DNA of 64,000 nucleotides from a virus. Lineage: Duplodnaviria > Caudoviricetes. The notes under the pieces were generated by a model that had not been told where the DNA came from, did no database searches, and saw nothing but the letters and a program-made list of their open reading frames with translations. The stretch covers positions 64,001 through 128,000 of IMG/VR virus record IMGVR_UViG_3300013426_000019; one strand, 5' to 3'. The position numbers and the translations under genes are program-made. Shown here in pieces: positions 1 to 52,683 of the stretch. The number at the start of each line of letters is the position of its first letter. Within the stretch, counting starts at the first letter, position 1.

Positions 1-1
1 C

Positions 2-82
2 ATTGCAAGTCTTGACACGGCCGTAGGTAAAATCCCAACAGCAGACATTGCAGGTATTGTAGCAGGTACAACTACGGAATAA
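2..82 (+). CDS. 3' end of an upstream gene (partial)
   Basis: Open frame IASLDTAVGKIPTADIAGIVAGTTTE ending in TAA at 80-82, followed by a hairpin. Confidence 0.6.
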   Translation: MASLDTAVGKIPTADIAGIVAGTTTE

Positions 83-110
83 TCTTAGTGACTTAAGGTT
101 AAGATAACTA

Positions 111-132
111 AGGCCCTTCAAATGAGGGGCCT
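111..132 (+). terminator. Intergenic hairpin, terminator-like
   Basis: AGGCCCTTCA-AA-TGAGGGGCCT inverted repeat; no real U-tract. Confidence 0.5.
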
Positions 133-170
133 ATTGTTATGGTCACGTAAACAAACTAATTGCTATAGAG

Positions 171-1670
171 GTGAACTCAGTGGCAAACAATTACCATTAT
201 CTAGGACAAGACAGCCTAGCCCGACTATGGGACAATATAAAGGAATATTACAGTAGTGACATAAACTCCATACACATAGGAGACAACACAACAGCCACTA
301 CAAGAGACATATACTTAGAGGGCACAGACAACATAGCCACAACCAAATACGTCAAGGACTTAGTACTAGACACCCTAACAGGAGGACTAGCAGCAATACC
401 TGTAGTAGATGTAGAGGTTAATGGTGGATCGGTGTTAGACAATAGAGTAGCCAAAGTAGACATCCCAATAACGGCGATAAATGTCAAAGAGGGCAAGGTA
501 GTAGTCAACAATAGAACAGCCTACATTACACTACCAGTAACAGACATACGAGTTAAGGGTGAATCAATAGTACAGGATGGCGTAGCTACAATAGAGTATC
601 CTGATGCCCCAATACAAAGTATAAGTGTCAATGGTAACAAGCTAGAGGTAGTAGACAGCAATGTCAACGTAGTAGTACCTGCAATAAGTGTAGCAGGGAG
701 TATAAAGGAACCCACAGACAATATCATAGACATAACAATCTCAGACTTAGGAGCAGTAACAGAAGAGGAGTTAGGGACCTTAAGCAAGAAGGTAGACAAT
801 ATAGGGGCCCAACTAACACAACAAGCACTTAAAGATACAGCCTTAGAAGACTCCCTAAACGTCCAAACAGACAAACTGCAGACACTAACAGACAAGTTCG
901 GCGTGGCAGAGGGTCGACTTAACTCACTAGCGACATCAATAGGCAAACCTAGTGGCTTAGCAACATTAGGTGCAGACGGCAAACTTACAGGGAATCAGAT
1001 GCCTGATACACCTTATAAAGTATACAACACACAATCCGACTTGCCTGATCCTGGAGAATCTGGTATAATATATGTTGTCAAGGATAGTAGTAAGTTACTA
1101 ACCTGGAATGGAGAGAGCTATGCGCCGTTAGAGGGTAGGGATGAAGAGGCAGACAAAGCCATAAAGGATCACTTAGCTGATTACGACAATCCTCATAAGG
1201 TTACCAAGGATCAGGTAGGCTTAGACTTAGTAGACAACACAGCCGACTTAGACAAACCAATAAGTAGGGCTACACAAGAGGAGCTAGACAATAAGATAAA
1301 TATAACAGATGTAGTTGACTCTCTAGTAAGTCCGAGCAAAGACAAGCCTCTCAGCGCATATCAAGGAAGGGTCTTAAATGGTAAGATATCAGATACATCT
1401 AAACTTATAGAGAGCTTAGGATCTGTACTAAGGTTTAAGGGTGTACTACACAGCTTAGATGAGCTAAGAGCAGTTAAGGATCCTGAACAAGGTGATGCTT
1501 ATCAGATAAGGATAATTAATGATGATGGTACAGAGCAAGACGACAGCGGAGTGGTATATGCCTTCAATGGTAATGCATGGGTAGCTATATCGGTATCAAT
1601 ATCAGACATATCTGCTTCGATAGCAAGTACAGAAGAAGTATATCAAATAATAGAGAACTACGGAGGTTAA
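171..1670 (+). CDS. Tail fibre-like virion protein
   Basis: NPHKVTKDQVGLDLVDNTADLDKPIS and VVDSL..PLSAYQGRVL motifs typical of phage fibre proteins; N-terminal V.VNG..V repeats; coiled coil. Confidence 0.75.
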   Translation: MNSVANNYHYLGQDSLARLWDNIKEYYSSDINSIHIGDNTTATTRDIYLEGTDNIATTKYVKDLVLDTLTGGLAAIPVVDVEVNGGSVLDNRVAKVDIPITAINVKEGKVVVNNRTAYITLPVTDIRVKGESIVQDGVATIEYPDAPIQSISVNGNKLEVVDSNVNVVVPAISVAGSIKEPTDNIIDITISDLGAVTEEELGTLSKKVDNIGAQLTQQALKDTALEDSLNVQTDKLQTLTDKFGVAEGRLNSLATSIGKPSGLATLGADGKLTGNQMPDTPYKVYNTQSDLPDPGESGIIYVVKDSSKLLTWNGESYAPLEGRDEEADKAIKDHLADYDNPHKVTKDQVGLDLVDNTADLDKPISRATQEELDNKINITDVVDSLVSPSKDKPLSAYQGRVLNGKISDTSKLIESLGSVLRFKGVLHSLDELRAVKDPEQGDAYQIRIINDDGTEQDDSGVVYAFNGNAWVAISVSISDISASIASTEEVYQIIENYGG

Positions 1671-1681
1671 GGTTAACATAA

Positions 1682-4600
1682 ATGGACAAGGTACTAGGAT
1701 TAGAAGGTGCGCAGATACTATATGATGACAACCGTAAGAGAGTAGAGGATGTTAGGAAGGATCTTCAGAACATTGATAATCTTAAGGTAGACGGCGCCAG
1801 AGTATCAGAAGATGGCAAATACTTATACTTAACATCTCATGATGAAGATGTAGCAGGTCCTTACGGTCCCTTCAGTGGAGGTGGTGGGGGTGGTGGAGGC
1901 TCCGACAATGAAGCTAAACTTACAGTTATAAACCAATCAGGAGACATGCCGACAGCGGTACCTACAGGTGGCAAGTACGTTATCAAGTTATACTGGACCT
2001 CTATAGAGCAGGACATGCCAACGGGGTCAGGTACTATTGAAATTAAGGTCAACAAGGAGACTAAAGTATCGGGCAATATACCTCAAGGAGAGTATCAGAT
2101 TGACTTAATGCAATACCTAATAGTAGGTGACAACAGTATTAAGATTACAATATCAGATATCTATGAGAATGCTAGAACTGTTGCGTTCAGCGTTAGGGTA
2201 GTATCATATAGCTTAGTTGGTTCAGACAGCTTCGACCCTTCGCAGGCTTACAATAGTGCAATACCGTTCTCCTTCACAGCTAGAGGTGAAGGTACCAAGA
2301 CTATGCACTTCTTGATAGATGACAAAGAAGTCTTAACTAAGAACATAACATCAGCCAATAGAGAAGATACAGTTGAGCTGCCTAAACAATCGCATGGTGT
2401 GCACAGATTAGTTGCGTACTTCACAACAATGTTAAGTGGGGAGACTATAACATCCAACTCACTAAGTTACGACCTTATATGTTATGAAGAGGATAATCCA
2501 GCAACAATCATAGCATCATCATTGACAGATATTGAGGTTGACCAATATAGTACAATAAGCATACCCTACTACGTCTTCAATGCTCTACACAGTACAGTAG
2601 ATGTTGAGTATCTTATAAATGGTGAGGTAGTATCAACACTTACCAACGTAAGTAGATCACTGCAGACCTGGGTTAGAAGAGCTGAAGATGCCGGTGCTTA
2701 TACATATACAATAAGATCAGGTAGTGCATCTAAGGACTTCAAGGTATCTATAACTAAGCTCAACGTAGATATCTCAGCTGAGACAAGTGGTCTATCATTA
2801 CACTTAAGCTCTGAAGGTAGATCCAACAATGAGGAGCCTACTAAGAGGAGTACTTGGGAGTATGAGGGTATTAAGGCTCAGTTCAGAGGGTTCAATTGGA
2901 ACTCAGACGGTTGGGTACTAGACAATGAAGGCCACACTGTATTGAGAGCCAAGGACGATGCTAGAGTTGTTATACCATATCACCCATTCGGTACGTCTAG
3001 TGGCGACATTAAGTCAACAGGTAAGACCTTAGAGTTTGAGTTCGCCACAAGCAGTGTCTTCGATTACGATACACCTATTATAAGTTGCTTAAGTGGTGGC
3101 AAGGGGTTCCAGATTACAGCTCAACAAGCGTTGTTTGCCTCTAACGTTAGCTCCTTAAAGACACAGTATAAAGAGAATGAGCATGTTAGAATCTCGTTTG
3201 TTATTAACAATATAAGTAACAACAGACTCATATACTGCTACATTAATGGTATTATATCTGGCCTTATAACATACCCTGTTACTGATATATTCTATCAGAA
3301 CCCTGAAGTAGATATAACAATAGGCTCAGCAGATGCAGTCGTAGATGTCTACAGAATTAGAATATATGACAGAGCTCTAAGCAGGTTCCAGGTTGTAAAT
3401 AACTGGATTGCAGATATGCAGGATGGTGCTAAGTTACTTGAAGAGTATAGGCGCAATACAATATACGACGACAATGATAACTTATCTCTTGATCTAATTA
3501 AGACACACCTACCTACTCTACCTTATATAGTAGTATACACGGATGAGGTAACAGACAAGAAGGGTAACTTGGTAGGGCACTTACCTACCTACAAAGGAGA
3601 GAAGTTACTAGTAAGTGGCTATTATGTAGACCCAGTTAATCCTCAAAACTCCTTCAGTTGGAAGAACGGAGAGATAGACGTACAGGGTACCTCATCACAG
3701 GCATATCCTATTAAGAACTTCAAACTTAAGATCAAACGAGCAGATACTTATGAGGACGAGACAACTCGTAAGCCTACAGACTGCTCCGGGTTCATTATGA
3801 CTCAATTATCTGAAGAAGAAGGTAAGGAACATACAGAGAAGAAGTATCCTCTAAGAGGTTATGATGAGAGTGGCAAAGCCTTATCCATTAAGGAGAACAC
3901 GTTTGTCTTCAAGGCAGACTACGCATCTTCTGAAGGTTGTAACAACGTCGAGTTAGTAAGGTTCTACAACGATGTATGTACACAATATGTATATCCAACA
4001 CCCCCACAGCAGAAGGATAAGAAGATCCGTCAAGGCATAGACGGCTTCCCAATGGTATGGTTTGAGGTTAAGGGTGGCGAAGTTAAGTTTATAGGTAAGT
4101 ACAACTTCAACAACCACAAAGGTACAGAAGATACATATGGCCTAAGCTATGGAGGTGAGACCTTTGAAGAGACAGCAGAGAGTGATTATTATAGATCAAT
4201 AGTAGGTGCACCTGATGAATCTTGGGAAGTTACAGATAATAACAATCTTATAACATTGTGGAGAAGAGTAGCGGGAGATGCTACTAAGACGACTATAACA
4301 GACTCTGCGGGCAGACCTACAACTTATGATGTATATATCTCAGGAGATAACTTTGAGTTAGTTAAGACAAGATCTCTGGAAGCTATATACTTAGGTAGCA
4401 GTAGTAGCATAGATAAGAACGAGTATCCTAAGTACACTACATGGGCAACTGAATGGCAGAAGACTTATACAGACCTAAACAGCTGGATTACAGGCTACGC
4501 CCTGACAAGTATATATGATGCAGGTGAAGGATTAGACGATGAGACTAAAGCTCAGCGAGACCTTATAATACTCACAATGAAGAAGGATATAAGAGACTTG

Positions 4601-7600
4601 TTCAGTCTTACTGAAGTAAGTTCTCCAATAAGCCCTGAAGAAGATATGCTAGGTGAGTGGGGTAAAGGTGAAGCGGTAGCACATGCCTTTGAGGTCAGAT
4701 TCCCAGGAGAATGGTACGATGCCCACACAGAGGGTCAGCCTGAAGTAGTTAAGGTAGATAGGTTTGTTGCCTTGCAGAAGTGGGTAGTATCTACAGATCC
4801 TAATAAAGTAACAAATGAGAAGTTAGAGAAGCCAGTAACTTACGCGGGCACAACTTACGACGTAGATAACGAAGCCTATAGATTAGCTAAGTTCAAGAAT
4901 GAGTTAGGCTTATACTTCGATATTGAAGATACCTTGTTCTATTATATATACACAGAGTTGTTCCTGATGATTGACTCTCGTGTCAAGAACTCATTCCCAA
5001 CATACTACTCAATCAATCATGATGTTCAGGCCTTTGAAGCTACCACAGGAGAACCTCTATATGAGGAATGTGGTAAGAAGGATGTAATTGAAGAAGGTAA
5101 GTCCTACTTCAAATACACAGAGTCAGAAGACGGCAATGTAACATATGAGCCATTTGAAGGCAATATAGGAGATAGCGCAGTAGACAGCGATGGTAACAAG
5201 CTCTACACTTATATGATGACTCAAGCGGAGACTCTGGATAAGAATGGTTGGCCACTAGGTAGATGGTGTTGGTTGCCGTATGATATGGATACTGGTATAG
5301 GTATCAATAACGAAGGATTACTTGTCTTCGATTACAGCTTAGAAGATACTGAAGCCTTAATAGGTGATAGAGTAGTCAAGATAGGAACACCAGGCAGTGA
5401 AGATGGCGTACCTGTATTCAATGGTGCATCCTCGGTACTGTGGAATAATGTCAGGAAGTGCTTCTCAAGTGAGATAGCCGATAGATATGTAACACTGCGA
5501 GGCGGTGCTATGTTCAATTATGACACTATTGAGAAGAGATACGAAGATCACCAGTATATGTGGCCTGCAGCAATCTTCAACGAAGATGCATATTATAAGT
5601 ATATCCTACCACTCCTAACAACAGGTGAAGACAGATTAGGTATGTGCTTAGGATCTAAAGAGCAACAGCGCAAGTGGTGGATGTTCAATAGATTCAGGTT
5701 CTTGGATAGTAAGTACGTAGCAGGCGATGCAGTCAACAGTAGAATCAGCTTCAGAGTTAACGACTTAGCAGGAGACAAGACAATCAGAATCACACCTTAC
5801 ATAGACCTCTACGTTAAGGTTAAGCAAGGTGAGGCCTGGGAATCTACCCCTACTAAGGTATACAGAAACAAAGAGTTACCCGTATATATCAACGTACCAG
5901 AAGCAGGAGACACTGAAGCCTACATATACTCAGCTGATCAGATTAAGGAGATCAAGGGTCTTAACCAGAGCCTACATATAAGTACACTGGATATCTCTAA
6001 GGCAGTTAACCTACAACATCTAGACGTGTCCTCTACAGATAGTGTTAAGGGTAATACAACACTAGCACAGCTAGCAGTGGGAGCTAATACACTACTTAGA
6101 AGTATAGATGCCCGCAATTGCAGAGTATTAGGGGATATATCTCAGAAATACTTCACAACAGTAGTAGACTTATCTCAGTGTGAACAATTAGAAGAGGCCT
6201 ACTTCAATGGTACTAAGTTAGCAACAGTTATGTTACCTGAAGGAGGCAGACTTAGAACAGTATATCTACCATCCTCGATAACAACACTCAACATTGAGAA
6301 CCAGGGTAAGATCAAAGATATACAGATCCTAGACTTTGATGGTAATTGGGATACATCTAACATTGAGACTCTTATTATAGACAACGTCAATACTGAGGTG
6401 CAGTTAATAGCCCTAGATATTATACATACTCTAAAGTCAGGCAGCTTTGTTAAGTTCAGAGGGTTCGATATAACCTTAGACTCTAAAGATAAGTTCACAG
6501 AGTTCATAGATAAGTTGTTTGAGTTGAGAGGTGAAGGTGGTACAGATGTTAATGTTGCAAATATCCAGGGTACAATACATCTCAAGACAACTGAAGTAAT
6601 TGACTATGCTTACTACAAGAGAACAATAGATAGATTCAAGGACCTTATAATAGATGCAGAAGTAGCTAAGACAGTGCAGTTCTACAACTACGACGGCACA
6701 GTTAAGCTAGATACTCAGGTATCAACAGATAACTCAGCTGCTACAGGAAGAGTAGAGTACAAAGGTGAAGCACCAACCAAGCCAGATACAGTTAAAATAC
6801 ACTATGTCTTCGACGGCTGGACCTTAACTCCAGGTGGTGCCTTGGAGGAAGATATCCTAGATAATATAACAGGAGATCTTATAGTATATGCTCACTTCAA
6901 GGAGATCCCAATATATTATGTCAACTTCTACAACTATGATGGTACAGTTAAATACCACACAGGTTACACTTATGATGTGGGAGATGTTGAATATAAAGGA
7001 GATAAACCTGCGTATAACGATGAGAAGTTTGGAACAGTAGAGTTTATGGGCTGGGGCACTGTAAAGTATGGTAGTGCAAATCTAATCTATGAATCTGGCA
7101 AGATTAGAGGCGTAGATAGAGACATCGAAGCTTATGCCATAATGAACTGGCCAATTATATCGTTTGAGGTAACCAAGAACCCCGACAGGCTTAACTATTG
7201 GCCTCGCAAAGAGGAGAATGGCGAGGTACTATATGAAGGTGACTACATAGACTTAGAAGGCATAGAGGTAACATCTGTTAAGTCAACTCCTAGTGGTAAT
7301 CAAGAAGCTCAACTATTGTCTTACGATTATGAGCCTAAAACAAGACTTACCACGGATAATCACACCATTACAATATCTACTAGAGGTAGAATAGAGGGTG
7401 CTGACACAACAATAGAGAGAACTCTCAATATTGGCCTAGCAGTAAGCAGCAGACTCATGAGGGAGGCTGACAGATCCGTGTTCTTCTTAGAGGATGATTG
7501 GGATCCAGAAGGCATGGAGGTTGAATATACCTTCGATAACAGTGAGACTGAGTTAGTCCACATACCTGCTAAGACTGAAGGAGTATGCAGTTGGGTACCT

Positions 7601-8788
7601 GAGAAGATCACTGAGGTAGGCTGGAAGGGCATAGAGGTTAACTACAAAGGCTTCAAGACAATGACAAGGGCATTTGGCGTTAAGAACATAGGTAATCTTA
7701 ATGAGACGGATTGGGAGACAATCTCAGCTGTATCTCAGGCAGGTCTAGCAGCTAACTGGTGGAGTATTGGCGACACCAAGACAGTGTACCTTAAGGCGCC
7801 TAATGAGATAGGTTACAAAGAGACAACAGCCTGGCAAGGAGGGCTCAACACCTACAGGATTATAGCGTTCGATCATAACATGGATGTAGAGAGTCCTAAT
7901 AGACACACCATCACCTTTGCATTAGCAACAAGTTCAATGGACGTATACGACTATACGATAGTAGATAAGTTACCTGATAAGTTAGAAGGGGAGGAGGGGT
8001 CTAGAAAGACGTATGCAATATCCAAGGATGAGATAGGACAGTACTACGACTTATATTATTATAATAACAGCACAGAGTTCGAGGTATCTAAACACTATAT
8101 AGGTAGAGCAGAGTGCTTGAGTGGATATAATGGCAAGAAGATCATGAGAGTAGAGTTAGAGGTAGCTCATGCAGGGGGTATGATGTCTACACCTAATGAT
8201 GGTAGTGAATACAGTGGTGTTAAGTATAGCTGGGGTAAGGGATGTAATCTCAGAGAGATATGCAAGAAGTACCCTGAAGCGATGCCTAAGGATATGCAAG
8301 CAGTCCTCATAGATGTAGTTAAGAGTCAGAGAGACACGGCGCTTGAAGAGTATCCTTGGCCATTAGATGCAGCATCCTCTAATCGTTGGGACTTCAGCAC
8401 TAAGATAAGAACCCAGTATGACAGGGTATATATAGCAAGTTGGATGGAGTTAACAGGTTCTGGTAGGAGTAATCTAATGTCAGCAACACCTCCTGGACTA
8501 ACAACAATACAGGGGGCAGATGAGTCCGAATGTTGCAAGCAGTTTGAGTACTACAAGAACGGGGGTTCTACTCTGAGACTTAAGTTCGGCCAGTTAGGTA
8601 CTACAGTATATGCAACGTCTTACCCAACTAGATCTTATGAAGCGTTCAGATGGATACCAGCTTATCTGTCTACACCAGAATACTTCTCAAATTACTATGC
8701 TTGGGTAGGTTATGATGGCGACTTACAGAACTATATATGGTCAACAACAGATGCGACTGCTCCGTTTGTGCCAATCTATACTGTATAA
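1682..8788 (+). CDS. Giant multidomain virion protein (LamG-like, CotH kinase-like, LRR-like, Ig-like repeats, C-terminal DUF6273/CLec-like)
   Basis: 2368 aa; YIN G...DVYRIRIYDRAL (LamG-like); QGTSS..YPIKNF, GKYNFN, MIDSRVKN, LPYDMDTG (CotH-like); two V.FYNYDGT repeats; DWETISAVSQAG..W.IGD.K (DUF6273-like). Confidence 0.65.
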   Translation: MDKVLGLEGAQILYDDNRKRVEDVRKDLQNIDNLKVDGARVSEDGKYLYLTSHDEDVAGPYGPFSGGGGGGGGSDNEAKLTVINQSGDMPTAVPTGGKYVIKLYWTSIEQDMPTGSGTIEIKVNKETKVSGNIPQGEYQIDLMQYLIVGDNSIKITISDIYENARTVAFSVRVVSYSLVGSDSFDPSQAYNSAIPFSFTARGEGTKTMHFLIDDKEVLTKNITSANREDTVELPKQSHGVHRLVAYFTTMLSGETITSNSLSYDLICYEEDNPATIIASSLTDIEVDQYSTISIPYYVFNALHSTVDVEYLINGEVVSTLTNVSRSLQTWVRRAEDAGAYTYTIRSGSASKDFKVSITKLNVDISAETSGLSLHLSSEGRSNNEEPTKRSTWEYEGIKAQFRGFNWNSDGWVLDNEGHTVLRAKDDARVVIPYHPFGTSSGDIKSTGKTLEFEFATSSVFDYDTPIISCLSGGKGFQITAQQALFASNVSSLKTQYKENEHVRISFVINNISNNRLIYCYINGIISGLITYPVTDIFYQNPEVDITIGSADAVVDVYRIRIYDRALSRFQVVNNWIADMQDGAKLLEEYRRNTIYDDNDNLSLDLIKTHLPTLPYIVVYTDEVTDKKGNLVGHLPTYKGEKLLVSGYYVDPVNPQNSFSWKNGEIDVQGTSSQAYPIKNFKLKIKRADTYEDETTRKPTDCSGFIMTQLSEEEGKEHTEKKYPLRGYDESGKALSIKENTFVFKADYASSEGCNNVELVRFYNDVCTQYVYPTPPQQKDKKIRQGIDGFPMVWFEVKGGEVKFIGKYNFNNHKGTEDTYGLSYGGETFEETAESDYYRSIVGAPDESWEVTDNNNLITLWRRVAGDATKTTITDSAGRPTTYDVYISGDNFELVKTRSLEAIYLGSSSSIDKNEYPKYTTWATEWQKTYTDLNSWITGYALTSIYDAGEGLDDETKAQRDLIILTMKKDIRDLFSLTEVSSPISPEEDMLGEWGKGEAVAHAFEVRFPGEWYDAHTEGQPEVVKVDRFVALQKWVVSTDPNKVTNEKLEKPVTYAGTTYDVDNEAYRLAKFKNELGLYFDIEDTLFYYIYTELFLMIDSRVKNSFPTYYSINHDVQAFEATTGEPLYEECGKKDVIEEGKSYFKYTESEDGNVTYEPFEGNIGDSAVDSDGNKLYTYMMTQAETLDKNGWPLGRWCWLPYDMDTGIGINNEGLLVFDYSLEDTEALIGDRVVKIGTPGSEDGVPVFNGASSVLWNNVRKCFSSEIADRYVTLRGGAMFNYDTIEKRYEDHQYMWPAAIFNEDAYYKYILPLLTTGEDRLGMCLGSKEQQRKWWMFNRFRFLDSKYVAGDAVNSRISFRVNDLAGDKTIRITPYIDLYVKVKQGEAWESTPTKVYRNKELPVYINVPEAGDTEAYIYSADQIKEIKGLNQSLHISTLDISKAVNLQHLDVSSTDSVKGNTTLAQLAVGANTLLRSIDARNCRVLGDISQKYFTTVVDLSQCEQLEEAYFNGTKLATVMLPEGGRLRTVYLPSSITTLNIENQGKIKDIQILDFDGNWDTSNIETLIIDNVNTEVQLIALDIIHTLKSGSFVKFRGFDITLDSKDKFTEFIDKLFELRGEGGTDVNVANIQGTIHLKTTEVIDYAYYKRTIDRFKDLIIDAEVAKTVQFYNYDGTVKLDTQVSTDNSAATGRVEYKGEAPTKPDTVKIHYVFDGWTLTPGGALEEDILDNITGDLIVYAHFKEIPIYYVNFYNYDGTVKYHTGYTYDVGDVEYKGDKPAYNDEKFGTVEFMGWGTVKYGSANLIYESGKIRGVDRDIEAYAIMNWPIISFEVTKNPDRLNYWPRKEENGEVLYEGDYIDLEGIEVTSVKSTPSGNQEAQLLSYDYEPKTRLTTDNHTITISTRGRIEGADTTIERTLNIGLAVSSRLMREADRSVFFLEDDWDPEGMEVEYTFDNSETELVHIPAKTEGVCSWVPEKITEVGWKGIEVNYKGFKTMTRAFGVKNIGNLNETDWETISAVSQAGLAANWWSIGDTKTVYLKAPNEIGYKETTAWQGGLNTYRIIAFDHNMDVESPNRHTITFALATSSMDVYDYTIVDKLPDKLEGEEGSRKTYAISKDEIGQYYDLYYYNNSTEFEVSKHYIGRAECLSGYNGKKIMRVELEVAHAGGMMSTPNDGSEYSGVKYSWGKGCNLREICKKYPEAMPKDMQAVLIDVVKSQRDTALEEYPWPLDAASSNRWDFSTKIRTQYDRVYIASWMELTGSGRSNLMSATPPGLTTIQGADESECCKQFEYYKNGGSTLRLKFGQLGTTVYATSYPTRSYEAFRWIPAYLSTPEYFSNYYAWVGYDGDLQNYIWSTTDATAPFVPIYTV

Positions 8789-8803
8789 GAGGAGAAGAGA
8801 TTA

Positions 8804-9265
8804 ATGGACTATTATATATGTGTCAAGACTTATGAAGGTAGGGATCTAACGGGCAAGAAGGTTACAATACCAATTGGTTCGAGATTAGAGGCTAAGGGAG
8901 ACTTCCTGTATTGGGAGTCTATCCCCCTATGTACCTGGCGAAGTGACGTAGCTAAGAAGAACTTTGTGTGGGATGATAACTTCGAGTTAAGGGTATGGTA
9001 TCAGAATACAATCCTAGATGGAGACAGAGTAAGGACCTGGATTGAGAGGGTACCTAACTACGATGATAAGGGTAGAATTATAGGTACAAGAGAGGTTATA
9101 ATGCATGGCCCTTATAAACCAGAAGAGGTACTCTATATTAAAGAGCATTACCCTGACTTGGTACAGGCCGGTGAGGTTATAAACTACAGTGATGGGTTCT
9201 ACAAAGCTAGTATAGATAGATTAGAATCATTGGCTGAATATTGCAAGAGTATTGTGAACACTTAA
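8804..9265 (+). CDS. Hypothetical protein
   Basis: 153 aa ORF with AGGAG RBS, directly after the giant gene. Confidence 0.7.
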   Translation: MDYYICVKTYEGRDLTGKKVTIPIGSRLEAKGDFLYWESIPLCTWRSDVAKKNFVWDDNFELRVWYQNTILDGDRVRTWIERVPNYDDKGRIIGTREVIMHGPYKPEEVLYIKEHYPDLVQAGEVINYSDGFYKASIDRLESLAEYCKSIVNT

Positions 9266-9477
9266 GGTTATATTAGATAATAGAAGATGCAAGTGAGGAG
9301 GTCATACTCTCTGTCTTAAAATAGAGGGGACCTCTTAACCACACTAATTAAATGAATAAATCTTGGACGATATTGCCTTAAGTTAAAGTGAATCAATTAT
9401 GTTAAGTTTGGGAGGCTCTAAGATTAAATAAGGAGCCTCTTAGTTATTAAAGCAATATCATTAGGGAGATAAAAAAA

Positions 9478-38433: not shown

Positions 38434-38456
38434 TAGCTCAAACTAATTAAAACAAT

Positions 38457-43210: not shown

Positions 43211-43218
43211 TCTTATTT

Positions 43219-43252: not shown

Positions 43253-43299
43253 AAGAATCCACCAAGTTCTGGTTATATTATATATAAGGAGCCAACACA

Positions 43300-44829: not shown

Positions 44830-44844
44830 CAAATCAGTTATATT
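44816..44844 (+). promoter_or_regulatory. Sigma70-like promoter
   Basis: TTGACA-17nt-TATATT. Confidence 0.7.
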
Positions 44845-44888
44845 ATATATGTAAATAAAGAAAACACAACACACAGGAGAAACCTAAT

Positions 44889-45290
44889 ATGGAAGCTAAG
44901 AAAATTAGAACAGTTGAAAGTAGAATTATGGAACTTGAAGCAAATAGTGATGCTGATGCAGAACTCCTCAGCAGTGCGCTTGCTAGTATATATGAATTAA
45001 CAGCTAAGGTAAATAAGCTAGAAGAAAAGGTAGCTAAGTTAGAAAAGGAAAATGAAAATCTCAATACATATGTAGAACAGGATATTGACACCAGACTTGA
45101 AGATGTTGAGTATGTTCTAGGAATGTATGAGGACCTCGAAGATCTTAATGAAGAAGATGAAGATTGTGGTGAAGGAGACTTTGGAGAAGAAGAAGCAGAA
45201 GATGAACACCATAAATCTGTAGCATCAATCTTAGGCGCATGCGAAGATGTTATTAAGAGTGTCAAGGAGTATCTTAAGGAGGATAAATGA
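44889..45290 (+). CDS. Acidic coiled-coil protein
   Basis: Heptad repeats followed by a D/E-rich tract; AGGAG RBS. Confidence 0.75.
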   Translation: MEAKKIRTVESRIMELEANSDADAELLSSALASIYELTAKVNKLEEKVAKLEKENENLNTYVEQDIDTRLEDVEYVLGMYEDLEDLNEEDEDCGEGDFGEEEAEDEHHKSVASILGACEDVIKSVKEYLKEDK

Positions 45291-46459
45291 AAATAAGAAG
45301 TGGCTTTGTGAGCAATAGTTCAAGTTCTAGCTTCATCTTAACTTATGATAAAAAAGGTGTAATAGACTCAGCCTCTAAGATTGTAGAGTATCTAAAGAAT
45401 ACAAAGGACAACTCTCGATTATACTTCAGAGGAAGAGAACTAAACGAAGGTGAAGATATCTTTGAGTTAGAAGACGAAGATGCTAGACTCATTAGATTAT
45501 TCAGTGAACAGTTTGAAGATATAAATGAAGGAACGGAATCTAGAACGGATTACAGCTCTCCAGAGGAGTATACTGAGATAAATGTACCTAAGGTAAGACT
45601 ATACACTAAAGCAGTCTTAAGTGCGGATCCTGCTGGCTTTGAATACTACAATTATGGTAAATATAATAATATTGTAGATATGTCTGACGTGGAACATCTA
45701 AAGCATGATATATCCTTAGCTGTACTAATAAATGGTCCAACTGACGAAGATAGGCAGAAAAATCCTCATATCGATGAAGATATTAAGGAGCAGAAAGAGT
45801 ATGAGAGAATCTTCGAGAAGAGAATCACAGAATATAGACAGCAAAGAGTTAAGAATGTTAAAAACGAAGACACTCTATATCTTGTAAAGAATGGTTCCAA
45901 TGTTAATGATATTGTAAGTGAGTTTGTAGATATTGATAATGAAGCCTTAGGAGATTGCTCAGCATCTTGGGAAGACTTCTCAGAGAGATACTTAGAGGAT
46001 CCTACAATAGATCCTGAAGACTATAATCCTGACTACTACAAAGCTGCTCATAAATATATCCTAAAGGGTGATAACTATAAACTTAATAAGAGCTATATAG
46101 TTGTATACGATGAACTCCTCGAAGATAAAAATAAGATAATGGAGTATCTTAAAGATAATCTAGATAAAGACAACTACTTGGTATGGACTAACCCTGCTCT
46201 TAATGTTAAAAAGGAAGTCGTTGAAACTATCCTATACAATGTAGGTGGGGAAGAATATGAAGTACTTGAAAAACTTAACTTCAAAAATTGTAAGAAAAAA
46301 GCATACTTATATACTAATGCGGTTATATTATATAATGTAGAAGGCACAATAAGTAAGACAGGATCCTATATGTTAGGAGAAGGAAAAATTGCTTGTGTAC
46401 CTAAAGGTGGGGACTTAAAAGACTTCAGGAAATACATGAAGGAAGAATCTACCTTGTAA
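45287..46459 (+). CDS. MKIRxGFVSNSSSSSF-motif protein
   Basis: N-terminal MKIRSGFVSNSSSSSFI, shared with 63222. Confidence 0.8.
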   Translation: MKIRSGFVSNSSSSSFILTYDKKGVIDSASKIVEYLKNTKDNSRLYFRGRELNEGEDIFELEDEDARLIRLFSEQFEDINEGTESRTDYSSPEEYTEINVPKVRLYTKAVLSADPAGFEYYNYGKYNNIVDMSDVEHLKHDISLAVLINGPTDEDRQKNPHIDEDIKEQKEYERIFEKRITEYRQQRVKNVKNEDTLYLVKNGSNVNDIVSEFVDIDNEALGDCSASWEDFSERYLEDPTIDPEDYNPDYYKAAHKYILKGDNYKLNKSYIVVYDELLEDKNKIMEYLKDNLDKDNYLVWTNPALNVKKEVVETILYNVGGEEYEVLEKLNFKNCKKKAYLYTNAVILYNVEGTISKTGSYMLGEGKIACVPKGGDLKDFRKYMKEESTL

Positions 46460-46580
46460 CGTTAAAAATATATGGTAATGTGTGAAGCCATATAAATCAT
46501 CTCCTTAAAAAGTTTATAGTCCCCTCTTGATCTTAGGAGGGGATTATATTATAATATAGTAAAGGAGAGTAGGAAAAACT

Positions 46581-47675
46581 ATGAAGATTGTTGAATCTAA
46601 AAATACGAACTTGTATAAGTATGAAGTAGCAGAAGACTCTAACTACAAGATCTTTGAGAGTGATAAAGCCCACTACGTCTTCGATAAGAAGACGGGGGTA
46701 ATGATGAGTTGGGGAGAGACTATGACAGACGATCCTCAGGAGTTCCCTGTACCTACTATCCTAGATTTAGAGGTATCTACTAAGTGTAATAAGCCAGTAC
46801 CTTGTAAGTTCTGCTACAAGAGCAATACACATAATGGGGATATAATGTCTCTAGACACCTTCAAGAAGATTATAGATACTATGAGTAGAGGCCTAACTCA
46901 AGTAGCACTAGGTTCGGGTTACTATGGTATAGAGAATCCTTATATCTTCGATATGATGGATTATGCTCGACTTAAAGGAATTATACCTAATATAACAGTT
47001 GGATGTGTTAGAGAAGACTTGGCTGACGACTATGCTAAAAGAGTAGGGGCAATTGCAATCAGTCGCTACGAGGACTCTGTAAACGATTGCTATAACTCTG
47101 TTAAAAGAATGACAGATAGAGGAATAACACAAACCAACATACATTATATGATCTGTGAAGAAACCTATAAGGGAGCTCTGCAAACATTAGAAGATGCCAA
47201 AACGGATCCTCGTCTTAAAAAGTTAAATGCAATAGTCTTCTTGTCTCTAAAAACTAAAGGAAGAGGCAATAGAGGGTTCACACCTCTAAGTCAAGATAAG
47301 TTCGATAATCTAGTAAATAAGGCAAAGGAATATAATATTGGTATAGGCTTCGACTCTTGCTCATCACTTAAGGCGTTCAAGGCTTATAAAGGAGATGCAA
47401 GTGTATCTAAATTGATTGAACCTTGTGAGTCAGGAAGTATAAGCTCCTATATAAATGTAAAAGGGATATATTATCCCTGCTCGTTCGCCGAAGGAACTAA
47501 AACAAATAATCTAAATTGGTCTGAAGGTATAGATGTACTGAGCTGTAAAGATACCAATGAGTTCTTGACTAAGGTGTGGTATAATAAAAAAACCAAGGAG
47601 TTCAGGAAGGCCTTGCGGGAATCTAGAAAGTGCAATGAATATGATTGTAGAGAGTGTCCTCTCTATAATGTGTAG
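46581..47675 (+). CDS. Radical SAM protein with atypical Cx5Cx2C motif
   Basis: CNKPVPCKFCY; PCESG..YINVKG.YYPCSF; C-terminal CRECPLY. Confidence 0.85.
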   Translation: MKIVESKNTNLYKYEVAEDSNYKIFESDKAHYVFDKKTGVMMSWGETMTDDPQEFPVPTILDLEVSTKCNKPVPCKFCYKSNTHNGDIMSLDTFKKIIDTMSRGLTQVALGSGYYGIENPYIFDMMDYARLKGIIPNITVGCVREDLADDYAKRVGAIAISRYEDSVNDCYNSVKRMTDRGITQTNIHYMICEETYKGALQTLEDAKTDPRLKKLNAIVFLSLKTKGRGNRGFTPLSQDKFDNLVNKAKEYNIGIGFDSCSSLKAFKAYKGDASVSKLIEPCESGSISSYINVKGIYYPCSFAEGTKTNNLNWSEGIDVLSCKDTNEFLTKVWYNKKTKEFRKALRESRKCNEYDCRECPLYNV

Positions 47676-47746
47676 GGTATAGTTGGGATATTAAGAACAA
47701 CTTATGGAAAAAACCGAACTATATATAATAATTAAAGAGGTGAGAT

Positions 47747-47971
47747 ATGAACTTCGAGTTAGTAATGGCTTGTATGTGGGTATTGACGGGGGCGTTAATA
47801 GGAGGCTTAGGAACTCATAGAATTAGAGCTAGTAAGAAAAAAGGAATCCTCTTGGATAAGAAGAAAGCTGATAACTATGAGGTTATGAAAGGTATAGGAT
47901 TAAGCTTGTGCTTGTTGGCTATACTGTTCTGGTTGCCTATGAGCTGCGTAGTGAAGACACTACATAAATAG
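47747..47971 (+). CDS. Small two-TM membrane protein
   Basis: Two hydrophobic segments; GAGGTG RBS. Confidence 0.65.
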   Translation: MNFELVMACMWVLTGALIGGLGTHRIRASKKKGILLDKKKADNYEVMKGIGLSLCLLAILFWLPMSCVVKTLHK

Positions 47972-48118
47972 GAAAAAAACTAGCGAAAATTATCTCCGAA
48001 ATATCTCTGTGCTGAAAATTAACTAAACCAGGTTAGGAGGAGGTACTTGAAAAAGTACCTTAAAATAATCAGTCGACTTAGAGAAAAATATCAATATTAA
48101 AGTTATAATATATAATAT

Positions 48119-48194
48119 AGGGGCGAACCCAAGTCGGTAGCAAGGGACTGCCTTATAAGCAGTGTATAGGAGGGTCCAACTCCCTCGGCTCCTA
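48119..48194 (+). tRNA. tRNA-Ile (anticodon TAT)
   Basis: Anticodon arm ACTGC-CTTATAA-GCAGT; T-arm GAGGG-TCCAACT-CCCTC; acceptor AGGGGCG/GGCTCCT (6/7 paired); no encoded CCA; promoter motif just upstream. Confidence 0.75.
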
Positions 48195-48284
48195 ATAATC
48201 TAAAAAAAGTGGTAACTGCTTTGGATTGGAAATCCTAGAATGTTCCCACTCCTTAAATTAAAGTAAATAGGAGAAGTAAAGAAA

Positions 48285-49124
48285 ATGGCTTATGAGAAAG
48301 TAGGGAAGTTCCACCCTGACAAACTAGCCGATAGAATTGCTGGTGCAATCGTAGACTTAGCTTACACTAAGAATGACAATCCTAAGGTAGCCGTAGAGGC
48401 ACTATTGGGTCATGGAGTATGTGATGTTATAGTAGAGACATCTGAAGTACTAAGCCATGAAGACATCAAAGCTATTGTACATAGAATAGCTGGTGATAGT
48501 GTTGATGTTATTGTTAGAACATATCCTCAAGATACTCACCTTGCAAATAATCAGAAAGGTGAAATTAGATGTGGTGATAATGGGATCTTCAAAGGCATGC
48601 CACCTACAGAAGAAGAGAAAACCTTATCTAAGATAGCAAGAGAGATTAATGAAGAGTACCCTTATGATGGTAAGTATATCCTGGATGAGAAGACTAAAAA
48701 GTTAATTATATGTCAGAGTAACATTAAGCCAGAAGACGAAGAAAAGCTTAAGGAAAAATACTCTGCCTGGGGATATGATGTGGTAGTTAATCCAATAGGG
48801 TCCTGGACAGGTGGTATCGATGTAGATGCAGGCGCGGTCAATAGAAAACTTGGCTCGGATATGGGAAGAGGGGTTACTGGAGGCGGTATTAATGGTAAAG
48901 ATATCTCTAAAGCTGATGTCGCTTGTAATATATGGGCAGCTGTTAGAGCTATGGAGTACAATAAGCCTGTAGAACTATACTGTGCAATTGGTGATACTGA
49001 AGTTACAGGCAGAATAGGACATAAAAAAATTAGAGTGCCTTATAAAGAGATTGCCGACTTTGCAAAAAGCTACGTAGATGGCTTAGGTGGGTTTGAGGCT
49101 CTATCAGAATGGGGCTTGTTGTAA
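48285..49124 (+). CDS. metK: S-adenosylmethionine synthetase, short phage type
   Basis: HPDKLADRI, GDNGIF, GG.DVDAG..NRK, GGG..GKD.SKAD. Confidence 0.9.
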   Translation: MAYEKVGKFHPDKLADRIAGAIVDLAYTKNDNPKVAVEALLGHGVCDVIVETSEVLSHEDIKAIVHRIAGDSVDVIVRTYPQDTHLANNQKGEIRCGDNGIFKGMPPTEEEKTLSKIAREINEEYPYDGKYILDEKTKKLIICQSNIKPEDEEKLKEKYSAWGYDVVVNPIGSWTGGIDVDAGAVNRKLGSDMGRGVTGGGINGKDISKADVACNIWAAVRAMEYNKPVELYCAIGDTEVTGRIGHKKIRVPYKEIADFAKSYVDGLGGFEALSEWGLL

Positions 49125-49362
49125 TTCAGTGAAATAGTGGAGTCATCAAGAAGTTCGATGGGGAATTAAAGGAAATATAAGAAATGCAAAAAGAGGAGAG
49201 CGTAAAAACTCTCCTCTATTATTCTAGAAAAGGATTGATCTAATAGATAAAGTATGTTATGATTATATTGTGAGGGAAAGGTAAGAAGAATAGGTGAAGA
49301 AAAGGACTAGACAAATCCTAAAGTAAGAATTATAATATATTATATAGGAGAAAGGCAAAGAC

Positions 49363-49716
49363 GTGGGAACAACTATGACCATAAAAGACTTAAGAGATTG
49401 GCTTGATAAAAACAAAAACTTCGATGATGAAGAACTAGTAGTATATCTACCTGAAGGAGGCGACTACTCAACTGCCTCTATATCTAATGTAGGAATATCC
49501 CCGACAGGGAAACTAGCTCTAATAAGTGACGATGATTATATTATGGGATTTGGGTATCCAGAAGACAGTGAGGAATACAACGAGGAGTTCAACAGCTTCA
49601 GGGATTGTGTAGATGAGAATGCTGTGGACAGAGTAGAAGATTATGCCAATAAGGGTAAAGCTCTATGTGAGGAGTTAGTTAACCTATTATCTGCAATTCT
49701 AGATGAAGTAGAGTGA
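49363..49716 (+). CDS. Hypothetical acidic protein
   Basis: 117 aa ORF after a promoter-like motif. Confidence 0.65.
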   Translation: MGTTMTIKDLRDWLDKNKNFDDEELVVYLPEGGDYSTASISNVGISPTGKLALISDDDYIMGFGYPEDSEEYNEEFNSFRDCVDENAVDRVEDYANKGKALCEELVNLLSAILDEVE

Positions 49717-49732
49717 AAGAGGAGAAGGAATT

Positions 49733-50362
49733 ATGTACGCAAATGAACTAGCTAACAAAAAAATAAGTATGACGAGTTATGATACTAAGCAGCTTGACAA
49801 CATAGCTACTAATGCATACCCTAATACAGTAGTAGACAATCGTTATAGCGATGCCTCCTATAATACAACTGTAAATCCAAAATCAGGTAAGTTTGATATC
49901 TTCGGCAAAGATAAACATGAAGAAAATAAGACAGCTAAGTATGAGATGACTGTAAAGGACCTCCTAAATATAATCAAGGCAATAGAGACAGGCAGGTTGG
50001 AAGGTGTCATAGAGTGTTGCGATAGAAGGAATTATGAAGAATTGGGTGAGGATGCTTGGTATCCAATATCTAAAGCAACTCTACTAGAAAGTGACTTAAC
50101 TAGAAACTACTACCGCATTAGAGAAGTAGGTAATGAGGATAAAGATAATCTAATGAATCACTACGAACTAGCAAGATGGTTAGCAGCTAATAAAGGTGAA
50201 TATAGAAATAATCATGGATTAACAGGTACAAGTTTAGACTACTTAGATGATGAGGAAACCAAAGTTGCTAAAGAATATAGAGTAAGACCTTGGGGGTCTA
50301 AATTGTGGATTAAACCTTATAAGACCTTATATACAGAAACCTTCGGAGATAAAGAAGTATGA
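49733..50362 (+). CDS. Hypothetical protein
   Basis: 209 aa, RBS, coupled to the next gene. Confidence 0.7.
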   Translation: MYANELANKKISMTSYDTKQLDNIATNAYPNTVVDNRYSDASYNTTVNPKSGKFDIFGKDKHEENKTAKYEMTVKDLLNIIKAIETGRLEGVIECCDRRNYEELGEDAWYPISKATLLESDLTRNYYRIREVGNEDKDNLMNHYELARWLAANKGEYRNNHGLTGTSLDYLDDEETKVAKEYRVRPWGSKLWIKPYKTLYTETFGDKEV

Positions 50363-51318
50363 AAATATCACACGAGTTCCCCTTGCAGTTCTACCTTAAC
50401 GGTGTGGCAGAAAGCTTAACAGATTATGACTATTGTCTAGTACATAGATATATTGAAAATAAAGAATATAGAGACTATATGAGAGGCCAGGTAGCTAAGG
50501 GTAGAACAGTGTACCTGGATAACTCCCTCTATGAATTAGGTAAGGCTTGGAATGATAGAGAGTATGCTAAAATTATAGAAGAGTTAAAACCTACATGTTA
50601 TATGCTACCTGATGTCTTCAATGATTGTGAGGCTAATATTAAGTCTCAGGTAGAGTTCTATGAGAAGTATAAGTTCCTGGAAAGCACCCCTATTGCAATA
50701 CCTCATGCAAGCTCCATGACAGAGATGATCTTAGCTACCCACAAATTGTGTAAAGTAATGTCTCCTGAAGTTATGATTGCTATACCATTTGCTGATAAGT
50801 CCTTCAAAAATGATCAGAGATTGTCAGGTAGATACTTCAAACCAGAAGATGTACCTTATATCCCTCTGAGGCAGGCTCTTAATCGTAAGGTGTTCCTGGA
50901 AGTTACGGCTAGTGAACTTAAAACACGTAAAGTACACTTGCTAGGTTGTAAATCACTGGAAGAGTTCAGCTTGTGGAAAAGTTTAAAGTCTTATGATAAG
51001 AGCTTTGTGGCATCCGTAGATACAAGTCACCCCGTTGCTATGACTCTGGAAACTAAAGAAACTGCCCTCCTTAGAAATACCTACGAAGGAATAAGCGAAG
51101 GAGATTATCTAACTGGGACGTTCACGTCGACTACAAGAGCTCAGGACTTTGAAGGTGTGGATGCTAAAGAAATTAAGATGCCTATGAGTGTCTATAAGCC
51201 TATATACCTAATAGATAAACACTTTGAGGATCACTTCGATATGACTAATGTGTTGCCTAGACTTAATAAGAATGTGGAGTACTTCAGAGAAAAAATAAGA
51301 GAGTGGGAGATGAGTTAA
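50359..51318 (+). CDS. TGT/DpdA-like transglycosylase, putative DNA 7-deazaguanine insertase
   Basis: VYLDNS.YE, LPDV, VHLLGC, SVDTS follow the TGT-fold motif order; lies ahead of the que cluster. Confidence 0.7.
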   Translation: MKISHEFPLQFYLNGVAESLTDYDYCLVHRYIENKEYRDYMRGQVAKGRTVYLDNSLYELGKAWNDREYAKIIEELKPTCYMLPDVFNDCEANIKSQVEFYEKYKFLESTPIAIPHASSMTEMILATHKLCKVMSPEVMIAIPFADKSFKNDQRLSGRYFKPEDVPYIPLRQALNRKVFLEVTASELKTRKVHLLGCKSLEEFSLWKSLKSYDKSFVASVDTSHPVAMTLETKETALLRNTYEGISEGDYLTGTFTSTTRAQDFEGVDAKEIKMPMSVYKPIYLIDKHFEDHFDMTNVLPRLNKNVEYFREKIREWEMS

Positions 51319-51348
51319 AAAGTATGAATGAATTGTATGAGAGGGTGA
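51312..51348 (+). repeat. 37-bp direct repeat, copy 1
   Basis: GAGTTAAAAAGTATGAATGAATTGTATGAGAGGGTGA. Confidence 0.9.
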
Positions 51349-51563
51349 AAGAATGTAAGAAACAAGGATTATCGGATGAAATAATAGTTATTAAACTCTT
51401 AGATAAAAATACATCTTCTAGAGATATCCTTGAAGAACTTAAAGAATATAATAATAGAGAAAAGTTAGCCTCACACTTAAAAGTTTGGGCAAGAACTCAA
51501 AAAATAGTAAATAAGCACAATGAATATGGAATCCCAATGATAGATAAAGATGAGGATTGGTGA
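51324..51563 (+). CDS. Hypothetical protein, possible antitoxin
   Basis: Starts inside repeat copy 1 and overlaps the PemK-like gene. Confidence 0.55.
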   Translation: MNELYERVKECKKQGLSDEIIVIKLLDKNTSSRDILEELKEYNNREKLASHLKVWARTQKIVNKHNEYGIPMIDKDEDW

Positions 51564-51984
51564 AATGTATATGTCAATTAAGCTCCATGAGATGGCAAAA
51601 TATGAATATACTCTTGAAGAGGTTTTAGATTATGAGAAAAATAATAAAAATAGTTTGAGAGGATGTAATACATATGAGATATACTACGCTTATATAGGGA
51701 GATATGATCAGCCGGGGGTATATGATAAAAGGCCTTGTGTTGTAATAGAAGACTTAGGAGAAAATGTACTTGTGGCTAAAATTACAAGTAAGAGCAAAAA
51801 TAGTCCTAGGAGATACTTAATTAAAAATTACAGAGGGCTGAATATAGAAAATCCTAGTTATATAAAACTGGACGAAGAATTATATACAATAAGTAAAAAA
51901 TGGCTGACACTCTTTTGTGGAGATATAAAATATTCAGATGCCTTAGAGATAGAAAAATTGATAGGAGTTAAAAAGTATGAATGA
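51550..51984 (+). CDS. PemK/MazF-like protein
   Basis: KRPCVVI, VAKITSK, GL....SYIKLD...TI. Confidence 0.75.
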   Translation: MRIGEMYMSIKLHEMAKYEYTLEEVLDYEKNNKNSLRGCNTYEIYYAYIGRYDQPGVYDKRPCVVIEDLGENVLVAKITSKSKNSPRRYLIKNYRGLNIENPSYIKLDEELYTISKKWLTLFCGDIKYSDALEIEKLIGVKKYE

Positions 51985-52001
51985 ATTGTATGAGGGGGTG
52001 A
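51965..52001 (+). repeat. 37-bp direct repeat, copy 2 (36/37 identical)
   Basis: GAGTTAAAAAGTATGAATGAATTGTATGAGGGGGTGA. Confidence 0.9.
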
Positions 52002-52068
52002 CTTCACCATAATATAGGACTTAGAGGAAAATTGCTGAGCTTAATCGTTATATTAATATAAAGGAGCC

Positions 52069-52638
52069 TTGAAAATGAAAAATATACATATATCCTTAAC
52101 AGGTGCAGCTTGTTCAGGTAAAACAACGCTTATGAATGCCTTGGCAAAAGAGTATCCTGAATTTGAAGTACAGAATGAAAGTGTTAGATATCTTAAAAAT
52201 CAATATGGCATGGACTTCAGGTCAGGTAATGCAGCGTTGCAGTTATCTCTATTACATCTACAAACTAAGTACCTCCTAACTCCAGGGTATTATCTATTAG
52301 ATCGCTCAAGTGTAGACTCTTGGTCTTATACTCAGTATTATAAGGATAGAGGTCAGAGCGATATTGAATCCAATGTACTTAAATATGTGGAAGATGAATC
52401 TAGAAAAAATGCCCAGGAACTAATTGATCTCATTATATATCTTAGACCGGGCGACTTCGAGTTAGTGGAAGATGGGGTAAGAATTACAGATAAAGATTAT
52501 ATTAAGAATACCGATCTAGAAATGGAGAAGACTATTAAGAGGTGGAGGCTTGAAAATAAAGTAATTGAACCTCATGGATCTGTGGAAGAAAGAGTTGAAT
52601 ATTGTAAAAAATATATTGATGAATTAATTGCAAAATAA
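52069..52638 (+). CDS. P-loop nucleotide kinase (AAA_28/NadR-like)
   Basis: TGAACSGKTTL, LLDRS.VD...Y, VEDGVR, GSVEERV. Confidence 0.8.
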   Translation: MKMKNIHISLTGAACSGKTTLMNALAKEYPEFEVQNESVRYLKNQYGMDFRSGNAALQLSLLHLQTKYLLTPGYYLLDRSSVDSWSYTQYYKDRGQSDIESNVLKYVEDESRKNAQELIDLIIYLRPGDFELVEDGVRITDKDYIKNTDLEMEKTIKRWRLENKVIEPHGSVEERVEYCKKYIDELIAK

Positions 52639-52683
52639 GGGAAGACTACTTAGGTAGTCCCTTATATTATATATATCATCGCG

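Follow-up and report, generated by a model that had tools for sequence, protein, structure and literature searches.

T-runs are nearly absent from the sense strand of long-resident genes in one sub-lineage of large tailed phages

Results

Core blocks and islands in the window

We analysed a window of 64,000 bp, bases 64001-128000 of the 158,768-bp IMG/VR virus contig IMGVR_UViG_3300013426_000019, for the avoidance of short runs of T (T-runs) on the sense strand of its genes. The contig is estimated to be 74% complete; it covers 159 kb of the genome, roughly 215 kb in size, of a myovirus. Its genes encode a tail sheath protein, two tail-fibre-like giants (2368 and 2339 amino acids, aa) and an intein-interrupted terminase; topoisomerase II, a DnaG-type primase, a DnaB-like helicase and GroEL; and SHMT, a Ro60/DUF2828 protein, a 7-deazaguanine cluster with QueC/D/E and FolE, and several radical-SAM cassettes. 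The 2339-aa protein gave no PHROG, Pfam or Atlas lead. Strong Shine-Dalgarno sites stand in front of the genes; no tRNAs were found in the contig, and Rfam gave no matches.

The window is divided into "core" blocks, whose sense strand is nearly free of T-runs, and "islands", whose T-run content is normal:

1-12804, + strand: core block with genes for 499-aa (tail-fibre-like), 2368-aa, 153-aa and 1108-aa proteins; one TTTT in 12.8 kb
12839-14182, - strand: TnpB/OrfB_IS605 transposon gene; T-run-normal (out-of-frame TTT 17, 22 expected); GC 0.32
14484-15531, + strand: two small core genes; T-run-free (out-of-frame TTT 1, 10.3 expected)
15794-24621, + strand: radical-SAM/Cys-repeat cassette; T-runs at or above expectation; GC 0.23-0.33, with the Cys-repeat gene at 21521-22537 (0.41) as the exception
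25535-27549, + strand: core genes avoiding both T-runs and A-runs
27521-31313, - strand: core block, spacers included, with the pattern flipped
31357-35117, + strand: core genes for DnaC-like, DnaB-like and DUF7487 (homing-endonuclease-like) proteins; nearly T-run-free
35193-37215, + strand: IS607-type element, a serine resolvase (Pfam) followed by a 456-aa ORF (no Pfam match; taken as the putative TnpB partner); T-run-normal
37501-51318, + strand: 14-kb core block (SHMT, Ro60/DUF2828, SAM-synthetase-like and others) avoiding T-runs only
51303-51984, + strand: PemK/MazF-type toxin cassette with 86-aa and 144-aa ORFs; T-run-normal; GC 0.30
52069-52638, + strand: core kinase-like gene; T-run-free
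52784-60324, + strand: mosaic 7-deazaguanine cluster, T-run-normal and T-run-free genes interleaved
60550-64000, + strand: core block resuming and continuing past the window; T-run-free

In the mosaic cluster, the T-run-normal genes encode QueC, split by a LAGLIDADG intein (52784-54688), QueE, QueD (PTPS) fused to a GIY-YIG endonuclease domain (56297-57415), and a DUF7487 ORF; Vut_1/YhhQ (54691-55407) and FolE (57430-58107) are T-run-free. The DnaB-like gene has a T-run patch at its 3′ end, where it adjoins the homing-endonuclease-like gene.

T-run depletion in core genes

We called 159 open reading frames (ORFs) on the contig and shuffled synonymous codons within each gene, keeping its protein and its codon usage. 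Two sets were compared: 91 core ORFs (97 kb) and 54 island ORFs (45 kb, mostly GC 0.27-0.35). On the core sense strand we counted 11 TTTT (263 expected), 20 TTTC (315 expected) and 442 TTT (1336 expected); TTTTT was absent from the entire 97 kb. Every T-word in the island ORFs was at shuffle expectation. The per-gene distribution was bimodal, most core genes having 0-0.2 and islands 0.9-1.4 of expectation. A control restricted to the window (300 shuffles under the same constraints) gave the same picture: the 39 core ORFs (36.3 kb) contain 2 TTTT against 77.4 +/- 8.0 expected, the lowest of the 300 shuffles having 57, and 127 TTT against 445, and the 23 island ORFs contain 276 TTTT against 252. 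In the block at 1-12804, TTTT occurs once (~22 expected from codon shuffles) and out-of-frame TTT 5 times (106 expected); the 2368-aa gene has no out-of-frame TTT at all (70.8 expected). The depletion of T-runs, ~25-fold after codon-preserving shuffles, is thus real and very strong.

A sequence-only reading of the window had described the + strand as devoid of TTTT before ~11470. The first TTTT indeed lies at 11472, whereas base composition (T = 24.6%) predicts ~42 in 1-11471. It had also reported a flip in the minus-strand block 27521-31096, where we counted 55 TTTT and 0 AAAA on the + strand. Its pattern was borne out; the end that it set at position 52640 was not, since the whole 159-kb contig shows the pattern. 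The islands that it named (15.8-24.6 kb, the IS607 element, the QueC intein gene, queE/queD and an ORF at 58240) are all T-run-normal. It had named two outcomes that would refute it, loss of the depletion under amino-acid- and codon-preserving shuffles and symmetry across strands. The depletion survives such shuffles and tracks the direction of transcription, so neither refutes it. The strand asymmetry follows gene orientation as a rule, but it is not complete: in roughly every second core gene the sense strand is short of A-runs too.

An assembly or sequencing artefact was rejected, because only one strand shows the depletion, A-runs have survived, and proteins of identical sequence recur across many independent assemblies.

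The avoided word

The depletion was strongest for TTTT and TTTC (0.03-0.09 of expectation), followed by ATTT, TTTA, ATTC and CTTT/GTTT. The neighbouring base mattered: TTTC was far rarer than TTTA, TTTG was spared, and ATTC was depleted but ATTA was not. ATTA, ATTG and CTTC were normal or enriched in core genes, and the CT-rich words CTTC, CTCT and CCTC were enriched. G-runs and C-runs were not avoided, GGG and CCC being at expectation.

All reading frames were affected. Out-of-frame TTT was at 0.07 and 0.13 of expectation in the two registers. In frame, Phe was mostly encoded by TTC, as the sequence-only reading had stated: TTT made up 33% of Phe codons in core genes versus 76% in islands, and other two-fold T-ending codons in core genes made up 58-67%. 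Two thirds of the Phe TTT codons retained in core genes precede G, where TTC would create CpG. The CpG content relative to the codon-shuffle expectation was 0.64 in core genes and 0.81 in islands, and CpG avoidance and T-run avoidance are suggested to be traded off at Phe before G.

Strand, frame and spacers

The avoidance switches with gene orientation across more than 20 strand switches, including one block of 3.6 kb. This flip at each switch argues against a replication-strand cause, which was excluded. It also does not fit evasion of orientation-dependent restriction (Type III or BREX-like), which would fix the orientation regardless of gene direction. DNA-level avoidance of the restriction or PAM type was rejected because half of the core genes are rich in the reverse-complement words.

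Spacers were depleted in the sense direction as well. The 47 spacers between co-directional core genes (4.0 kb) contain 20 TTT (69 expected), 2 TTTT (18 expected) and no TTTC (10 expected), with AAA exactly at expectation; island spacers are rich in T-runs and A-runs alike. T-runs are present upstream of divergent promoters, e.g., T9 at genome 151885. The depletion of spacers and the presence of T-runs at divergent promoters indicate that the avoidance concerns the transcribed sense sequence and not DNA as such. Because all three frames and non-coding spacers are affected, the cause is not translational: slippery sites and tRNA choice were excluded, both out-of-frame registers being equally affected, and the frame dependence and confinement to coding DNA of frameshift-prone site avoidance were not seen.

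A second layer: A-run avoidance in half of the core genes

In 45 core genes, A-runs were avoided on the sense strand as well, more weakly. These include structural genes and genes for primase, exonuclease, SbcD, topoisomerase and GroEL; examples in the window:

171-9265, 25535-27549 and 29881-32133: core genes avoiding A-runs

AAAA and GAAA were at 0.26 and AAAT at 0.47 of expectation in the 45 genes, and the rank order was nearly that of the complementary T-words. Spacers of these genes contained 20 AAA against 46 expected. In the block at 1-12804, the 2368-aa and 153-aa genes avoid both kinds of run and the 1108-aa gene avoids T-runs only. The remaining 46 core genes, including the window blocks at 37.5-52.6 kb and from 60.5 kb onward, have A-runs at expectation, reaching 10 nt; the stretch 37501-51549, spacers counted in, has 0 TTTT and 209 AAAA. 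This layer is compatible with a weaker penalty on A-runs to which only the most strongly selected genes respond.

Islands as acquired DNA

The suggestion that T-run content marks acquired genes held up. The T-run-rich genes of the window are the IS607 element, TnpB, the intein and homing-endonuclease genes, the radical-SAM cassette and the toxin cassette. Elsewhere on the contig, a 13.6-kb radical-SAM island (genome 32261-45840; L003:12261-20000 plus L004:1-5840) is missing from the relative L011, which has ~38 nt instead and is collinear with this genome at 92-93% nucleotide identity. At this site a second relative, L008, carries a cassette that has diverged, so the locus may be a hot spot of cassette exchange. 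The idea that islands had co-diverged with the core was withdrawn in view of the 93%-identical L011 without this island.

The inteins of the essential terminase gene are T-run-free, and the intein of the accessory gene queC is not. The T-run-normal tracts near the DnaB-like gene, QueC and QueD look like homing-linked co-conversion from unconstrained donors. Divergence at four-fold sites between this genome (G000) and L008 was 0.26-0.38 in core genes and 0.38-0.61 in island genes. In this phage, T-run content is a sharp marker that tells long-resident DNA, even within a gene, from DNA that is mobile or was recently converted, e.g., extein from intein, and tracts beside homing endonucleases from their surroundings.

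Restriction to one sub-lineage

Relatives identified by their sheath protein lie on contigs of 200-385 kb. The avoidance is common to L008 (81% sheath identity, 221-kb contig) and L011 (93%). In the syntenic relatives L009, L012 and L013 (48-50%) and L010, L014 and L015 (38-41%), out-of-frame TTT is at 0.73-1.08 of expectation. The absence of the avoidance from these six relatives at 38-50% identity shows that the trait is derived, in a single sub-lineage with sheath identity of at least 81%. Relative to L009 orthologues, the change is almost purely synonymous: T at third positions fell from 0.48 to 0.31, C rose from 0.09 to 0.20 and G from 0.11 to 0.18, and A was unchanged. Phe content fell only from 5.0% to 4.0%, and sense-strand A+G is ~0.56 here versus 0.53 in L009. 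The clade and its syntenic sisters without the trait form a natural experiment for finding the responsible agent.

Terminators, promoters and polymerase

Many spacers contain strong GC-rich hairpins, among them the following in the window:

41075-41094, + strand: inter-gene GC-rich hairpin; sense tail interrupted (ATATTATT), antisense tail beginning TTTC
111-132, 43219-43243, 46515-46548 and 49192-49217: further inter-gene hairpins

Between co-directional genes the sense tails are ATTATT-like, and several hairpins carry canonical T-run tails on the antisense side. A T-run tail on the antisense side only, with an interrupted sense tail (ATTATT), was seen at window 41075-41094, 49192-49217 and 60419-60441 and at L007:14331-14357. 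Such hairpins may block antisense transcription and let sense transcription read through. Sense tails of T3-5 directly behind strong hairpins were found at four unit ends (genome 131375, TTTTT; 136879, TTTATTGTTTTC; 152660; and 7749); most unit boundaries, some convergent ones included, carry interrupted tails only. The T3-5 tails at unit ends, together with the antisense T-run tails between genes, suggest that the transcribing polymerase reads hairpin-plus-U terminators.

A TATATTATA(TA) motif recurs just after hairpins, 5-30 nt before start codons. TTATATTATATA-type motifs were seen at window 30123, 41113, 43274, 46545, 49336 and 52663 and at many more sites genome-wide, some so close to start codons that the mRNAs would be leaderless. 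Hairpin and TTATATTATATA-type motif together look like a terminator-promoter module.

The sequence-only reading had proposed selection against oligo-U in transcripts, for example by a phage RNA polymerase. The first part agrees with a bias that follows the direction of transcription, is independent of frame and extends into transcribed spacers. The second part found no support: the 159 kb (74% of the genome) gave no Rpb1/Rpb2/T7-type Pfam match (PF00562, PF00623) and no DxDGD motif, and the terminators look bacterial (hairpin, then U tail). A search with PF00940 gave no match here or in any control genome and hence has little weight. Within these 159 kb, no RNA polymerase (RNAP) domain or DxDGD motif was found that could belong to an enzyme stopping at oligo-T in the absence of a hairpin. 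The hairpin-plus-U anatomy and the lack of an RNAP gene in the contig point to a bacterial-type polymerase. Cryptic hairpin-plus-U terminators were rejected as the specific target, because residual TTT and controls showed no difference in upstream folding energy.

Discussion

A proposed transcriptional cost of U-runs

Our favoured explanation, held tentatively with a probability of about 0.4, is cumulative selection against U-runs because they make the transcribing polymerase complex pause or terminate too early and so impair elongation. The counts, the behaviour by strand and frame, the confinement to one lineage and the mobility of the islands are shown; the involvement of elongation or termination, and of a host polymerase, is our inference. 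Each U-run in a transcript (T-run on the non-template strand) would cost this lineage little, the cost being cumulative, because U-runs would slow elongation or end it early for the polymerase that transcribes the phage, most likely a host bacterial-type RNAP with its elongation factors. Long-resident genes and co-transcribed spacers would have exchanged T for C or G, nearly always at synonymous third positions, until hardly any runs of at least 3 T were left, TTTT and TTTC having been lost most thoroughly. T-runs would be kept mainly as tails behind hairpins, where transcription should stop. DNA recently arrived through transposition, homing or cassette exchange from unconstrained sources would keep its normal T-run content.

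The contrast between the terminase inteins and the queC intein is expected if the effect acts in cis on the transcript. RNA:DNA hybrids are weakest at U-runs and next weakest at A-runs; the observed avoidance, far stronger for U-runs than for A-runs and lacking for G and C, follows this order and was counted in favour of an elongation cost, as was the slower four-fold divergence in core than in island genes. In Clostridioides difficile, RNAP pauses at T-rich sequence and sense strands are T-poor (bioRxiv 10.64898/2026.05.06.723315), and Gram-positive NusG recognises TTNTTT on the non-template strand (10.1101/2022.10.28.514324).

Several observations weigh against this explanation. Half of the core genes, together with their spacers, shun A-runs in mirror image, and a cost of U-runs does not explain this. 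Interrupted words are close to normal (TT[ACG]TT 0.80, TTGTT 1.14), so that the signal is a short contiguous word rather than general T-richness; that element behaves as a fixed 4-letter word with sharp neighbour rules, which are predicted neither by hybrid stability nor by the E. coli pause consensus. TTNTTT (0.32) shows no depletion beyond the loss of TTT itself (0.33); avoidance of a NusG pause motif would require such an excess. Only a 14-nt spacer separates the T-run-rich genes queE and queD from T-run-free folE downstream, and because they are tolerated there, single T-runs cannot be strong blocks. Residual genic TTT is not depleted of upstream hairpins, and the TATATTATA motif precedes core and island genes alike. 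Finally, the contig analysed represents 74% of the genome.

If a bacterial polymerase, elongation factor or nuclease does penalise U-runs so strongly, this would be a hidden layer of the code that constrains codon choice, gene transfer and heterologous expression and to which phages must adapt.

Alternative explanations

The fixed, short nature of the word bears on a different agent, an endoribonuclease whose cutting sites during infection would be U-runs (about UUUY, AUUY) in single-stranded RNA, either a host toxin-antitoxin or abortive-infection nuclease or a phage tool for host shut-off, from which core transcripts escape by lacking the word. MazF/PemK enzymes cleave RNA at short words, some of them U-rich. 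The avoidance is sense-specific, extends to spacers, and removes a fixed short word from sense transcripts in every frame, as expected of site avoidance for a MazF/PemK-type enzyme; moreover, the phage itself carries a gene of this family. The 144-aa ORF matches PF02452 at 25.5 bits (cut-off 23.1) with the 86-aa partner upstream, and judged by this match its product is a candidate phage-borne sequence-specific RNase. However, the cassette was present in all near-identical strains recovered and in these only, a word-indexed search giving no other homologue, whereas the avoidance extends to relatives at 81% identity; the cassette thus seems too recent. The PemK-like gene itself holds TTTT, the phage's own T-run-rich cassettes would be cut too, and such an enzyme does not account for A-run avoidance by half of the core genes. 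We therefore consider a U-run RNase unlikely.

A more speculative version, which we regard as doubtful, is that the lineage faces a factor, its own or the host's, that destroys or terminates RNA containing U3-4Y, such as an oligo-U nuclease or a termination factor. Essential transcripts would have been made invisible to it, and word content would serve as an RNA-level mark of self and non-self, so that the T-run-rich transcripts of an AT-rich host and of newly arrived genes would be hit. On this view, the weaker mirror avoidance seen in half of the genes would imply that antisense RNAs from these genes are important as well.

Lineage-specific mutation pressure, strand-biased with respect to transcription and removing non-template T-runs, would yield a genome-wide, frame-independent pattern that includes spacers and is absent from sister clades and from mobile DNA, recent imports not being at equilibrium. 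We consider it quite improbable. A ~25-fold loss of one word would require an extreme context bias, and we know of no process with such a bias. Retention of TTT is much higher in frame than out of frame, chiefly ahead of G, a pattern that resembles a trade-off of selected features; T-runs survive behind hairpins at unit ends; and gene sets differ in A-run avoidance, with core synonymous sites evolving more slowly than those of islands.

Another candidate, in our view very improbable, is avoidance of Rho-dependent termination on untranslated ("runaway") transcripts. Bacillota Rho targets pyrimidine-rich, T-rich RNA, which would make sense strands purine-rich and T-poor. In B. subtilis, Rho targets are defined by C excess and T-richness, purine bias tracks transcription and not replication, and foreign genes are terminated unless recoded (PMC13323073). 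The sense strand here is purine-rich (A+G ~0.56), and a Gram-positive host would fit the strong Shine-Dalgarno sites and the FakA/DegV-type genes. However, more than half of the lost third-position T turned to C, CT-rich words are enriched where replacement of pyrimidines by purines would be expected, and the signal is a contiguous 3-4-mer, not composition over at least 100 nt.

General avoidance of slippage-prone homopolymers for fidelity of replication, transcription or translation, which recalls the under-representation of mononucleotide repeats in coding DNA (Ackermann & Chao 2006, PMC1378130) and the avoidance of both A-runs and T-runs by half of the core genes, is largely refuted by the strand asymmetry, the normal G-run and C-run content, the avoidance of runs of just 3, the other core genes full of A-runs of up to 10 nt and the effect on spacers and all frames, and is hardly credible.

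Comparison with known systems

Oligo-T termination signals are avoided inside genes in poxvirus early transcription (T5NT), by RNA polymerase III (T4+) and in archaea with oligo-T terminators. The phage resembles these systems in the frame-independent, sense-only loss of T-runs within units and the T-runs at some unit ends. It differs from them in belonging to the tailed phages, with Shine-Dalgarno sites and bacterial-type hairpin terminators, and in that no phage-encoded polymerase was found; moreover, runs of only 3-4 nt are purged, and most unit boundaries lack any T-run. With the T-rich pausing and purine-rich strands of low-GC Gram-positive bacteria (10.64898/2026.05.06.723315; 10.1101/2022.10.28.514324; PMC13323073) it shares a transcription-linked asymmetry achieved by synonymous choice and the unadapted state of foreign DNA. 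The published biases are modest shifts of composition; here, a short word is nearly eliminated (0.03-0.09) in one phage sub-lineage, T being replaced largely by C and not by purines. Mononucleotide-repeat avoidance (PMC1378130) likewise acts through codon choice against homopolymer runs, but it is strand-symmetric and concerns all four bases, whereas this phage leaves G-runs and C-runs alone and, in half of its genes, A-runs too.

Full-text literature searches did not turn up any account of T-runs being banned from phage genomes. The present case is an unusually extreme, lineage-specific example of transcription-linked sense-strand word avoidance, with the A-run avoidance as a second layer.

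Occurrence of the phage and a non-coding region

Searches of the phage collection by DNA and by sheath protein gave no match, and two scans of genome contigs, with TnpB and a DegV-like protein as queries, gave no relative and so no pointer to the host. Proteins identical to those of this phage were seen in dozens of independent assemblies (L016-L025), one contig having ~1585-fold coverage; it is a common phage of its habitat and turns up there repeatedly. At genome 20384-21906 (L003:384-1906), a mostly non-coding region of 1.5 kb with dense T5-T7 runs separates divergent gene blocks; conserved among relatives, it may act as an origin or control region.

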